Origin: a virus
Taxonomy: Duplodnaviria > Heunggongvirae > Uroviricota > Caudoviricetes
Direction: 5' to 3' (one strand)
IMG/VR virus record: IMGVR_UViG_2675903654_000007
Location: 1-8,736 of that record
DNA: 8,736 nucleotides
Shown: positions 1,967 to 8,736 of the stretch, in pieces
Position numbering within the stretch: position 1 is the stretch's first letter
Layout of the letters: each line of letters starts with the position of its first letter
Made by a program: the position numbers and the translations under genes
Notes under the pieces: model-generated
Databases searched by the model: none
What the model was told of the DNA's origin: nothing
Seen by the model: the letters and a program-made list of their open reading frames with translations, nothing else

Positions 1967-1986
<20 letters not shown>
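734..1986 (-). pseudogene. C: Prohead protease / minor capsid protein gpC, interrupted by a frameshift (N-terminal 130-codon ORF 1594..1986; C-terminal ORF 734..1606 in another frame)
   Basis: GTG at 1986 with AGGAGG upstream gives VTAELRNLPHIASMAFNEPLMLEPAYARVFF... (gpC N-terminus), which runs into a TAA at 1594 after ...IIARLQQA. The gpC sequence resumes in a different frame at RDIKPVWALANDMNCSAGQ (ORF 734..1606). Start overlaps the end of B by 20 nt as in lambda. Confidence 0.8.
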
Positions 1987-5589
<3,603 letters not shown>

Positions 5590-5615
<26 letters not shown>

Positions 5616-6135
5616 TCAGCAACCCCGATATCAGTTCATCCAGCGCGGCTGCTTTGTTCATGGCTTTGATGATATCCCGTTTCAGGAAATCAACATGTCG
5701 GTTTTCCAGTTCCGGAAAACGCCGCTGCACCGACAGGGGGATCCCGTCGAGAATACTGGCAATTTCACCTGCGATCCGCGACAGCACGAAAGTACAGAAT
5801 GCGGTTTCCACCACTTCAGCGGAGTCTCTGGCATTTTTCAGCTCCTGTGCGTCGGCCTGCGCACGCGTAAGTCGATGGCGTTCGTACTCAATAGTCCCTG
5901 GCTGGAGATCTGTCTCGCTGGCCTGTCGCAGTTCTTCAACCTCCCGGCGCAGCTTTTCGTTCTCAATTTCAGCATCCCTTTCGGCATACCATTTTATGAC
6001 GGCGGCAGAGTCATAAAGCACCTCATTACCCTTCCCACCGCCTCGCAGAACGGGCATTCCCTGCTCCTGCCAGTTCTGAATGGTACGGATACTCGCGCCG
6101 AAAATGTCAGCCAGCTGCTTTTTGTTGACTTCCAT
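5590..6135 (-). CDS. Nu1: Terminase small subunit gpNu1 (181 aa)
   Basis: MEVNKKQLADIFGASIRTIQNWQEQGMPVLRGGGKGNEVLYDSAAVIKWYAERD... matches the lambda Nu1 winged-HTH N-terminus; located immediately downstream of cosB. Confidence 0.95.
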
Positions 6136-6159
6136 TGTTCATTCCACGGACAAAAACAG

Positions 6160-6300
6160 AGAAAGGAAACGACAGAGGCCAAAAAGCCCGTTTTCAGCAC
6201 CTGTCGTTTCCTTTCTTTTCAGGGGGTGTTTTAAATAAAAACATTAAGTTACGAAGAAGAAGAACGGAAACGCCTTAAACCGGAAAATTTTCATAAATAG
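6160..6300 (-). promoter_or_regulatory. cosB-like terminase-binding region with three gpNu1-binding R elements and an AT-rich bend segment between them
   Basis: Three copies of CGTTTCC/GGAAACG between cosN and the Nu1 start (6165..6171, 6205..6211 inverted, 6266..6272), with an AT-rich tract between (6220..6260), the arrangement of lambda cosB R1/R2/R3 plus IHF site. Confidence 0.75.
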
Positions 6301-6312
6301 CGAAAACCCGCG

Positions 6313-6324
6313 AGGTCGCCGCCC
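6313..6324. other. cosN: 12-nt cohesive-end sequence (reverse complement of GGGCGGCGACCT) at the joined genome ends
   Basis: Window + strand reads cgcgAGGTCGCCGCCCcgtagc; the reverse complement is ...TACGGGGCGGCGACCTCGCGGGTTTTCGC, the canonical lambda cos junction. Confidence 0.88.
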
Positions 6325-6346
6325 CGTAGCCTGCCGGATCGCCGGA

Positions 6347-6353
6347 AAGGACC
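6347..6353. other. Probable cosQ element on the right-end side of cosN
   Basis: AAGGACC about 23 to 29 nt from the cosN nick position; the exact sequence and position of lambda cosQ are recalled, not verified. Confidence 0.45.
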
Positions 6354-6561
6354 CAATAAGTGATAATAATTATCATTTATATAAATACCATCACACATCC
6401 CACGTACACCATAAAACCACGACAAATAATCAATTTTGTCCAAGTCATGCATTAATTGATCTGTGTCAACTTAACGTAAAGACATCTTAAGACAATACAA
6501 ATCAGCAGCACTGAACACGGAAAAACACAATGTCATCAAAAAATAAAGCTTCCCAAACCAG

Positions 6562-6702
6562 ATGATTAATCAAATCCATATTGCCCTTGAACGTAAGGGA
6601 TCGGGTAATTTTTCGGCATGGGTTATTGAAGCCTGCAGGAGAAGGCTGGCAACAGATGCAAAGCACCTGCGCCCGGCCAGCATGAAAAATAACGAGAAAT
6701 GA
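6562..6702 (+). CDS. Short ORF (46 aa) with ribbon-helix-helix-like helix-loop-helix, probably an N-terminally truncated remnant
   Basis: MINQIHIALERKGSGNFSAWVIEACRRRLATDAKHLRPASMKNNEK; the G-S-G-N turn between two helices is RHH-like (Arc/MetJ/CopG). In-frame upstream codons hit TAA at 6544..6546 and the upstream ATG at 6530 is out of frame. Below the ORF-track length cutoff. Confidence 0.3.
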   Translation: MINQIHIALERKGSGNFSAWVIEACRRRLATDAKHLRPASMKNNEK

Positions 6703-6834
6703 ACGTTCGGTTACAGGAACCGGTAGCTACTGTCTTCTAACAATATTTCATCTTCATATCCGGCGAAACAAGACTTTACCCTGCAGGGATGTACTGAATA
6801 GCAACAGAGTGATAATTAACTTCTGATAAAATAA

Positions 6835-7161
6835 TCAGGGTGCTGAAGGACTAAAGATAAATGTTTTCTTCACGCCTTTACGCGGCTTGTCCTTCTCAAA
6901 TCGCCATTTTGCCATCGCCTTTACAACCTGCTCATCAAACAGATGGTGCGGCTCTGAACGGATAAACTCAATTCGGGTGACAGTACCATCAGCACCAATA
7001 TCAAACTTCACATCAACCCGTCCCTTTATATAATTTGCCGCGGCATAGGCCGGATATTGTGGTAATGCCTTAACCAACTGTCGAGGCATATCTGTTTTAT
7101 GTTGCGTACAGCCCATAACCAAAGAAGACAACAAAATAATTAACGGAAGATTTCTTTTCAT
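6835..7161 (-). CDS. Small lipoprotein (108 aa) carrying a TonB C-terminal domain, with no TonB N-terminal anchor or proline-rich spacer
   Basis: From ATG 7161: MKRNLPLIILLSSLVMGC (signal peptide with lipobox-like VMGC), then ...LPQYPAYAAANYIKGRVDVKFDIGADGTVTRIEFIRSEPHHLFDEQVVKAMAKWRFEKDKP..., matching the TonB_C signature (E. coli TonB: [55 protein letters not shown]). A second ATG at 7176 lacks an RBS. Confidence 0.75.
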   Translation of the reverse strand: MKRNLPLIILLSSLVMGCTQHKTDMPRQLVKALPQYPAYAAANYIKGRVDVKFDIGADGTVTRIEFIRSEPHHLFDEQVVKAMAKWRFEKDKPRKGVKKTFIFSPSAP

Positions 7162-7836: not shown

Positions 7837-8067
7837 ATGGAGTTTTTGAAAGAGCATCATTTGCCTTCAATAATTTTTGGAATTTTTTCCGCCATTTTTT
7901 GGATTATTTCATGTTTTGCATCTTCCAAAGAACACCCACCAAAAACGGAACAAGGCAGTTTCTCATCACTGGGTTGTTTTAAAGCCATTGAAATACAAAG
8001 TAAATGGAATAAACGGGCTGCTTTTTGCGCAGCGTTAGCTGTTCTTGCTCAAGTATTTAGCTTTTAG
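7837..8067 (+). CDS. Small hydrophobic protein (76 aa), two predicted membrane segments or a lipoprotein signal; accessory gene in the position of lambda bor
   Basis: ATG at 7837 preceded by AGAGAG about 9 nt upstream. MEFLKEHHLPSIIFGIFSAIFWIISCFASSKEHPPKTEQGSFSSLGCFKAIEIQSKWNKRAAFCAALAVLAQVFSF has an N-terminal hydrophobic stretch ending in IISC (lipobox-like), a basic loop and a hydrophobic C-terminus. AT-rich, opposite strand to the late genes, followed by a hairpin terminator. No similarity to Bor recognised. Confidence 0.6.
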   Translation: MEFLKEHHLPSIIFGIFSAIFWIISCFASSKEHPPKTEQGSFSSLGCFKAIEIQSKWNKRAAFCAALAVLAQVFSF

Positions 8068-8183: not shown

Positions 8184-8621
8184 TCATCGAAGGCATTGCG
8201 TCCTAATGTACTCCTGCAAGTAGTTAACCTGCGCGGTTATCCTGTCGATTCCACTTCGGAGACGGTAATAATTGAGTTCAGCATCTGCTGTAAGTCCTGG
8301 GGTTTCTCCATTGCCCATGCCGCTGGCTCCGGTCGTTGACTTTGCACAGGTGGCGGCGACTTGCAGGCGCTTACGCCCAGCAGAAACATCAGCACGGAGA
8401 CTTTCGATAGTCGCATTAGCATCAGCAAGCTCCTTTGTGTATCTGGCGTCAAGTTCTGCTACATCACGTTGCCGCTTCTGCATATCAGCGATGATGGATG
8501 TGGCTTTATCGCGCTGCTCTTTGTAGGCGATGGCGTTATCACGGTAATGATTAACAGCCCATGAAAGGCAGACGATGAGGCAGATGACCAGAACGTAGAT
8601 AATCGCGGTTACTCTGCTCAT
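8184..8621 (-). CDS. Rz: Spanin inner-membrane subunit Rz (i-spanin)
   Basis: From ATG 8621: [39 protein letters not shown]...[23 protein letters not shown]..., an N-terminal TM helix plus coiled coil, similar to lambda Rz. The ATG overlaps the endolysin stop (ATGA). The track start at 8633 is a GTG. Confidence 0.85.
8237..8422 (-). CDS. Rz1: Spanin outer-membrane lipoprotein subunit Rz1 (o-spanin), embedded in the +1 frame of Rz
   Basis: ATG at 8422 preceded by AAGGAG 7 nt upstream; [20 protein letters not shown] (lipobox VSAC) then proline-rich [22 protein letters not shown], the lambda Rz1 architecture, entirely inside Rz. An alternative ATG lies at 8416. Confidence 0.7.
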
Positions 8622-8736
8622 TGTTGCCCCCACAAACAGACTTCACGCTCAATCTCACGGCGAGTCATCAGCCCTTTCCATTGCTTACCGCCAGCGTATG
8701 TCCAGCGCCGTAGCTGATCACATGCGCCTTTGATAT
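8618..8736 (-). CDS. R: Endolysin, lysozyme type (not the lambda transglycosylase type), C-terminal 38 codons only
   Basis: Reverse-complement translation ends ...[36 protein letters not shown], which I recognise as the C-terminus of phage 21 / E. coli RrrD-type lysozymes; lambda R ends differently. 5' end outside window. Confidence 0.8.

Follow-up and report, generated by a model that had tools for sequence, protein, structure and literature searches.

The 46-residue open reading frame (ORF) next to the cos site in the analysed stretch of prophage DNA (8,736 nucleotides, termed the window) is very probably a decayed allele of a gene for a small DNA-binding regulator of the YlcI/YnfO family (DUF3950, PHROG 949). 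The initial annotation had proposed a decayed small regulator with a truncated N-terminus, or alternatively a helix-only product able to dimerise with a partner. The truncation is established by alignment to intact alleles, among them a progenitor of 98.8% identity that differs by a 28-bp deletion, and decay of a small regulator is the best-supported reading of the locus. The ORF is already contained in RefSeq. It is a truncated derivative of a known family and nothing new in kind, but provides a clean example of a small prophage gene that was disabled by a frameshifting deletion and is annotated as an ordinary protein.

Location of the ORF in the prophage

The window, which represents an E. 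coli lambdoid prophage, is reversed relative to the lambda map. The relevant features are:

Minus strand of the window: head genes
3690-5615, minus strand: terminase large subunit (A)
5590-6135, minus strand: Nu1
6313-6324, minus strand: cosN, 12-nt cohesive end, AGGTCGCCGCCC on the plus strand and GGGCGGCGACCT on the minus strand
6348-6354, minus strand: cosQ heptamer, AGGACCC on the plus strand, homologous to the annotated cosQ of phage 434
6835-7161, minus strand: TonB_C lipoprotein gene
8184-8633, minus strand: Rz

Positions 6313-6324 match the lambda cohesive end. The 46-residue ORF is located about 200 bp from cos on the lambda-right side, and its transcription is directed away from cos. 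Between 6280 and 8736 the window differs from E. coli DCE7 (NZ_CP090611.1) at 1 base in 2457. The preceding segment, 5992-6279, comprises the 5' end of Nu1 and the cosB region and gave no alignment to NZ_CP090611.1 at the chosen blastn threshold. Its length is kept and its flanks are 97-100% identical to that genome, a pattern that indicates a mosaic replacement of the terminase-binding module. The small-terminase gene is annotated as 546 nt in some carriers of the deleted allele and as 549 nt in others.

A near-perfect palindrome of 25 bp adjoins cosQ at 6356-6380 (ATAAGTGATAAT-A-ATTATCATTTAT), and a version of it also occurs in phage 434 (ATGATAAT-A-ATTATCAT). The palindrome may serve in packaging or as a binding site. 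Apart from this palindrome, the region upstream of the ORF contains short weak repeats, and no operator assignable to the ORF was found among these repeats. No Rfam family scored above threshold across the whole window.

On the other side of the ORF, the gene at 6835-7161 codes for a 108-aa lipoprotein with a lipobox (L-V-M-G-C) and a TonB C-terminal domain (TIGR01352, E=2e-15), named 'TonB family protein' in RefSeq. It occupies the place of ybcW/ybcV/bor in lambda, and in many Stx and EPEC prophages it is found together with the DUF3950 gene. A candidate moron, it might disturb TonB-dependent uptake. Between this gene and Rz, on the strand opposite to the late operon, is a 76-aa ORF with hydrophobic segments (7837-8067, plus strand; hypothetical protein WP_157778920.1), which is conserved in all examined carriers of the deleted allele.

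Two further lesions were noticed among the head genes. In gene C (S49 prohead protease, minus strand), 68 nt are missing around position 1635 and 1 nt is present instead, relative to NZ_CP090611.1, which splits the gene into two frames (ORFs 1594-2121 and 734-1606). The lost segment presumably holds the D-T-P-G-G region, as in lambda C. This deletion is absent from the complete RefSeq E. coli genomes, where the best matches listed align in three pieces (1646 versus 1501 nt). It looks as if either the source prophage is defective or the source assembly is faulty. The portal gene B (1967-3490, minus strand) has lost 78 nt in frame around position 2644 when compared with NZ_CP090611.1, which leaves a portal protein of 507 instead of 533 aa, and this deletion is absent from the best matches listed among the complete genomes searched.

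A 28-bp deletion truncates the gene

The features of the decayed gene are:

6530..6565, plus strand: ancestral start ATG 6530 with its 11 codons, MSSKNKASQTR*
6544..6546, plus strand: TAA that closes the 46-residue frame upstream; in the ancestral frame, bases of AAT-AAA (N5-K6)
6547..6548, plus strand: junction of the 28-bp deletion, where the progenitor has ACCAGCAGAACTACCACCCGTAACATTC
6548..6561, plus strand: untranslated remnant, codons 16 (last two bases) to 20, (R)FPNQ
6562..6702, plus strand: residual 46-aa ORF including its stop (TGA, ending at 6702), MINQIHIALERKGSGNFSAWVIEACRRRLATDAKHLRPASMKNNEK

The ORF itself, the in-frame TAA upstream of it and the different frame of ATG 6530, which is 32 nt upstream of ATG 6562, are all present as initially annotated. 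The frame upstream of ATG 6562 translates as ...HNVIKK*SFPNQM. The window keeps the ancestral ATG TCA TCA AAA AAT AAA and resumes at GC TTC CCA AAC CAG ATG. What is missing in between, ACCAGCAGAACTACCACCCGTAACATTC, comprises codons 7-15 (TSRTTTRNI) and the first base of codon 16, and the 28-nt gap is identical against every intact allele aligned. Since 28 is not a multiple of three, the downstream gene is out of frame and translation from ATG 6530 ends after 11 codons, of which the first six (MSSKNK) are the original N-terminus and the remainder is out of frame. The same shift brought the TAA at 6544..6546 into frame with the 46-residue ORF. The initial annotation regarded the DNA-contacting strand as cut off by this TAA. 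The strand is indeed missing from the ORF; its residues, however, are absent by deletion and not merely located behind a stop codon.

The only long frame that remains opens at an internal Met (residue 21). Consequently the ORF corresponds to residues 21-66 of an intact YlcI/YnfO (DUF3950) protein of 66 aa. It retains most of helix 1, which is short only of its first two residues, the K-G-S-G-N-F-S turn, helix 2 and the C-terminal tail, whereas the end of the former β-strand and the helix-1 cap are encoded by the untranslated remnant at 6548..6561. Direct reading of the sequence further reveals that the TGA of the leader (6563-6565) overlaps ATG 6562-6564 (ATGA).

A progenitor allele, P0178 (66 aa; e.g. 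CP101978.1), was obtained by cluster look-up and reads MSSKNKTSRTTTRNIRFPNQMINQIHIALERKGSGNFSAWVIEACRRRLATDATHLRPASMKNNEK. Its gene neighbours are identical (Nu1 / DUF3950 / TonB_C / 76-aa ORF / Rz). The DNA alignment with the window has 10 mismatches in 862 columns, the 28-nt gap and one 1-nt gap, corresponding to the identity of 98.8% over 833 aligned bases. From Met21 onwards the P0178 protein is the same as the window ORF except for K34T. P0178 contains the 28 bases ACCAGCAGAACTACCACCCGTAACATTC and thus encodes the basic arm and the strand, while the window copy has neither. The truncated allele and this progenitor constitute a natural pair for probing the role of the N-terminal arm and strand.

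No flanking microhomology was found at the deletion junction, and slippage between direct repeats was therefore rejected as its origin. A sequencing error was also rejected, because the deletion occurs in 11 complete genomes and the exact protein on 483 contigs.

Family membership and intact relatives

The ORF matches Pfam PF13132 (DUF3950) with 67.7 bits (E=8.1e-19; gathering cut-off 25 bits), with model positions 1-30 of 30 aligned to ORF residues 1-30. With such a score it is no chance frame. On NCBIfam NF041551 (YlcI_YnfO_N), in contrast, it reaches 20 bits over model positions 14-39 of 42 only, below the curated cut-off of 30 bits, because this model includes the N-terminal T-x-K-N-I-R-F-P part that the window ORF is missing. 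The intact lambda protein scores 37.6 bits over positions 2-39. Similarly, the window ORF matches PHROG 949 with E=1.2e-16 at profile positions 21-59 of 61 only, compared with E=2.5e-35 at positions 1-60 for the lambda protein. The window ORF is thus a truncated derivative of the YlcI/YnfO family and not a complete member. It is identical to RefSeq WP_001339565.1, and RefSeq annotates the same coordinates as a CDS in DCE7, E2348/69 (locus E2348C_RS26660) and other strains. The sub-threshold NF041551 score would explain the RefSeq name, 'DUF3950 domain-containing protein', and the fact that the Pfam model starts at the internal Met may be one reason why the ORF stays annotated as an ordinary protein. 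WP_001339565.1 would be better handled as a pseudogene.

An exhaustive profile search returned only 171 cluster representatives, so the DUF3950 family is small. Two very long predicted proteins in this set, P0027 (3694 aa) and P0127 (3504 aa), contain 17 and 6 separate DUF3950 profile matches, respectively, and are probably artefacts that arose by translating lambda-type DNA present as repeats or as contamination.

Most lambdoid prophages carry a YlcI/YnfO gene, which is encoded opposite to the late operon and separates the lysis/moron region from cos/terminase. In lambda, 434, O276, JLK-2012 and E. coli R1 a gene of 64-80 aa has this map position and this orientation, and these intact relatives all begin MS(S/T)KN(R/K)T.RTTTRNIRFPN.MIEQI.... 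In lambda the homolog at the homologous place is 64 aa long (MSTKNRTRRTTTRNIRFPNQMIEQINIALEQKGSGNFSAWVIEACRRRLTSEKRAYTSIKSDEE), which confirms the longer intact ORF quoted for lambda in the initial annotation; the sequence given there was exact. Arithmetic from the alignment and the ORF length of 195 nt places it at about 48,110-48,304 (complement). In phage O276 the ORF is annotated as 'YlcI/YnfO family protein', in phage 434 as 'DUF3950', and it is without annotation in several of the lambda-type records searched.

Homologs in Rouxiella and Tatumella stand alone among unrelated ordinary chromosomal genes, which argues against a role tied to packaging. Most of the related loci retrieved with an alignment of close members were lambda-type DNA with the DUF3950 gene that contaminates assemblies of unrelated organisms, among them Streptomyces, Cohnella, Pedobacter and Nanosynbacter; the contigs concerned measure about 48.5 kb or about 3.5 kb (loci L014-L041, L044, L047, L054 and L055), and only the loci of Rouxiella and Tatumella were informative. 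The contigs of about 3.5 kb are probably the nanopore lambda control strand. One of them was deposited as 'Arcanobacterium hippocoleae plasmid unnamed1' (CP136411.1, 3566 bp), and the terms ylcI and ynfO occur in a published paper on an Arcanobacterium hippocoleae genome (PMC11171008).

Conservation and selection

In an alignment of 25 members (30-70% identity), I15, R16 and F17 are nearly invariant, all of which are lost in the window. Of the nearly invariant positions, F37, S38, V41 and A44 are kept. The most conserved residues therefore include both the N-terminal I-R-F and the F-S-A-W-V-x-E-A of the second helix. Among diverged intact alleles, pN/pS is 0.08-0.14 over codons 1-50, a range to be read with pS at 0.6-0.9, where synonymous sites are near saturation. 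Purifying selection on the N-terminal 20 codons is the same as on the remainder. The conservation and the low pN/pS together demonstrate that the full-length gene is a real, constrained coding sequence. Hence homologs with an intact N-terminal strand do exist, and a clear coding signature is present (pN/pS about 0.1); absence of the one or the other would have spoken against a decayed regulator gene.

Probable ribbon-helix-helix fold of the intact family

The intact DUF3950/YlcI/YnfO family probably adopts a ribbon-helix-helix (RHH) fold. The sequence pattern of the intact proteins runs from a basic arm and N-I-R-F-P through a first helix and K-G-S-G-N-F-S to another helix, as is typical of RHH proteins. 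A profile of 25 members searched against the PDB gave as its two top matches the CopG-family entry 9kkd (E=0.053) and CdbA (6sbw, E=0.12), both RHH proteins and both aligned in register. Alignment of the family with NikR and CdbA places the I-R-F of the intact relatives on the strand of these proteins. With hhalign, the NikR N-terminal domain aligned over 40 columns comprising strand, helix, turn and helix (E=0.004, probability 8%); the corresponding values were E=0.007 over 22 columns for Arc and E=0.14 for CopG.

AlphaFold models of an intact 66-aa homolog contain helices at residues 19-32 and 37-55 with KGSGNFS between them. The mean pLDDT of the two models is 66 and 73; over residues 11-50, pLDDT is 76-85. 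In Foldseek searches the second model superimposed on NikR (2hza) with an rmsd of 1.0 Å over 40 columns (TM 0.57, E=3.9), and the first had ParD2, NikR and Arc as its best matches, with E values of 3-9 that are non-significant for so small a domain. All of these best matches are RHH or RHH-like proteins. The strand is not formed in the AlphaFold monomer models. In an obligate RHH dimer the sheet exists only in the dimer, so that a monomer without a strand is expected. None of the matches to a solved RHH protein is individually significant (E=0.05-0.12 for the profile, above 3 for Foldseek), and a single-sequence phmmer search against the PDB gave no RHH match, only chance matches to ribosomal protein L16. 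The RHH character suggested in the initial annotation is accordingly supported, though unproven, by weak but mutually consistent results, namely the profile matches to 9kkd and 6sbw, the NikR superposition and the hhalign comparison with NikR.

The window ORF itself keeps the two-helix part with its turn of the G-x-(S/T/N) type. The strand is missing, since N-I-R of the NIRF motif is deleted and F-P is located upstream of the start codon.

Frequency of the deleted allele

Copies of the family were found in 4184 of 5426 complete E. coli genomes (about 77%), at up to 12 places per genome. The listed non-deleted copies that span the site align over 214-216 nt, versus 186-188 nt of the window, which reproduces the difference of 28 nt. 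The deleted form is present in 11 records only of these 5426 genomes. Ten of the 11 are at least 99% identical, one is an apparent recombinant, and nine are identical over 201 nt. No further disabling mutations have accumulated in the remnant, and the deleted allele looks young. The sequence suggests that the allele of Z1323CEC0015 is a recombinant with JLK-2012-like sequence downstream of the deletion. The differences between Z1323CEC0015 and the window are unusable as a measure of selection on the remnant, because they predate the truncation.

In a larger protein collection, 483 contigs encode the exact 46-aa protein, compared with 28 for the intact progenitor. The head and lysis genes of the prophages in which it occurs are otherwise intact. 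Given these counts and these prophages, loss of the gene is at least well tolerated. A selective benefit of the truncation is possible, and the excess of contigs can reflect the sampling of successful host lineages.

Other 46-aa entries (P0004, P0007, P0177 and P0179) were considered as independent truncations and rejected as start miscalls. At the four P0007 loci that were read, the upstream frame is intact or the contig ends; at locus L008 (1441-1641), for example, the frame upstream of the internal Met reads MSSKNRPRRTTTRNIRFPNQMIEQ.... Many of the 46-aa DUF3950 proteins in databases are thus intact 66-aa genes started at Met21 or fragments at contig ends. A Pfam model that begins at Met21 may encourage such miscalls.

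Expression and possible function of the remnant

The intact protein most likely would be a small transcriptional regulator made in the lysogen. As an RHH dimer it would insert its paired β-strands into the major groove of DNA, with the basic arm (KNKTSRTTTR) presumably adding further contacts. Its gene would be expressed from the strand opposite to the late operon, as are bor and other lysogen-expressed morons. By removing arm and strand, the 28-bp deletion should eliminate the DNA-reading element. The remnant would then be devoid of the β-ribbon, which in RHH proteins reads the DNA and completes the dimer core. By this analysis the remnant, if made at all, is most likely non-functional.

ATG 6562 lacks its own Shine-Dalgarno sequence, and a consensus scan of the plus strand from 6250 to 6835 revealed neither a promoter nor a terminator for the ORF. 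The remnant could nevertheless plausibly be translated to some extent, because the overlap of the leader TGA with ATG 6562 provides an ATGA termination-reinitiation arrangement. In a K-12 RNA-seq survey, the transcripts of ybcW and ylcI were described as converging and overlapping (PMC12288877), and ynfO continues to be listed among the uncharacterised genes (PMC11551758). Neither a published function of any family member nor experiments on homodimerisation or sequence-specific DNA binding were found in the literature. For the strongly constrained gene of lambda and K-12, our analysis offers a concrete hypothesis, namely a small DNA-binding regulator whose fold is most likely RHH.

Three other explanations have to be weighed against decay. 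Reinitiation at the ATGA could yield a 46-aa helical hairpin that forms heterodimers with intact paralogs, which would be inactive for want of one strand of the β-ribbon, and acts as a dominant-negative modulator between prophages. We regard this as unlikely, and as quite improbable the more specific proposal that the strandless remnant poisons the RHH regulators of co-resident lambdoid prophages, letting one prophage interfere with others. Potential partners exist, as each of the 11 complete genomes in which the deleted allele occurs has 2-10 copies of the family and the part from helix 1 through the turn to helix 2 is 85-89% identical to some intact proteins of other prophages. Such poisoning, if true, would explain why the truncated allele outnumbers its progenitor in the contig counts, but sampling of host lineages could produce the same excess. 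The stop/start overlap follows automatically from ATGATT in the shifted frame and hence is no sign of selection. The missing Shine-Dalgarno sequence at ATG 6562 also speaks against production of the hairpin. In characterised RHH proteins (Arc/MetJ-type folds) the strand belongs to the dimer core, and poor folding and pairing are expected of a chain without it.

It is highly improbable that the family actually functions in the short form, with the longer forms being N-terminally extended variants or over-called starts. The Pfam model does span exactly residues 1-30 of the 46-aa ORF, and databases contain many 46-aa 'DUF3950' entries; those examined, however, turned out to be internal-ATG calls on intact genes or contig-end cuts. 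The N-terminal 20 codons are under equal purifying selection, I-R-F is nearly invariant down to 30% identity while Met21 is replaced by I or L in many members, and both the PHROG and the NCBIfam models include the N-terminal part. The chance that recoding, by a -1 frameshift or transcriptional slippage on the A-rich TCAAAAAATAAAG, joins MSSKN... to ...FPNQMINQ is close to nil. The 46-residue frame is indeed -1 relative to ATG 6530, and A_AAA_AAT (6538-6544) has the form of a slippery heptamer. A -1 slip at this site, however, lands directly on the TAA at 6544-6546, and recoding was rejected for this reason. In addition, a slippery site is absent from 6547-6562, the A run consists of six bases only, and a fused product would still be short of the nine deleted residues, most of the strand included. 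A decayed allele thus remains the preferred interpretation of the ORF.

An antitoxin of a type II toxin-antitoxin system was considered and rejected as well, since there is no co-directional adjacent toxin gene, the downstream TonB_C lipoprotein gene is convergent and cos is located upstream.

Comparison with known systems

The lambda copy shares with the window ORF the site between the lysis/moron genes and cosQ/cosN/Nu1 and the orientation opposite to the late operon. The two are 66% identical over the part that is kept, and the upstream leader DNA can be aligned. The lambda copy is intact and has MSTKNRTRRTTTRNIRFPNQ before the shared Met, whereas the window is short of nine of these codons and frameshifted. 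The C-terminal tails also differ (TSEKRAYTSIKSDEE in lambda against ATDAKHLRPASMKNNEK in the window), as do the gene neighbours, which are homologs of ybcW/ybcV/bor in lambda and the TonB_C lipoprotein gene in the window. YlcI (DLP12) and YnfO (Qin) of K-12 belong to the same family and have the same prophage position, adjoining nohD/nohA (Nu1-like). Both are full length and gave NF041551 and PF13132 their names, in contrast to the window ORF with its NF041551 score under the cut-off.

The intact family shows the strand-helix-turn-helix pattern, about 45 residues long, of the RHH proteins Arc and Mnt of P22, CopG, the N-terminal domain of NikR and the ParD-type antitoxins. Like Arc and Mnt, its members are very small phage-encoded proteins. 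In contrast to ParD-type antitoxins, no partner toxin gene is present at the window locus, and in contrast to all of these RHH proteins, the window copy has lost the strand that defines the fold.
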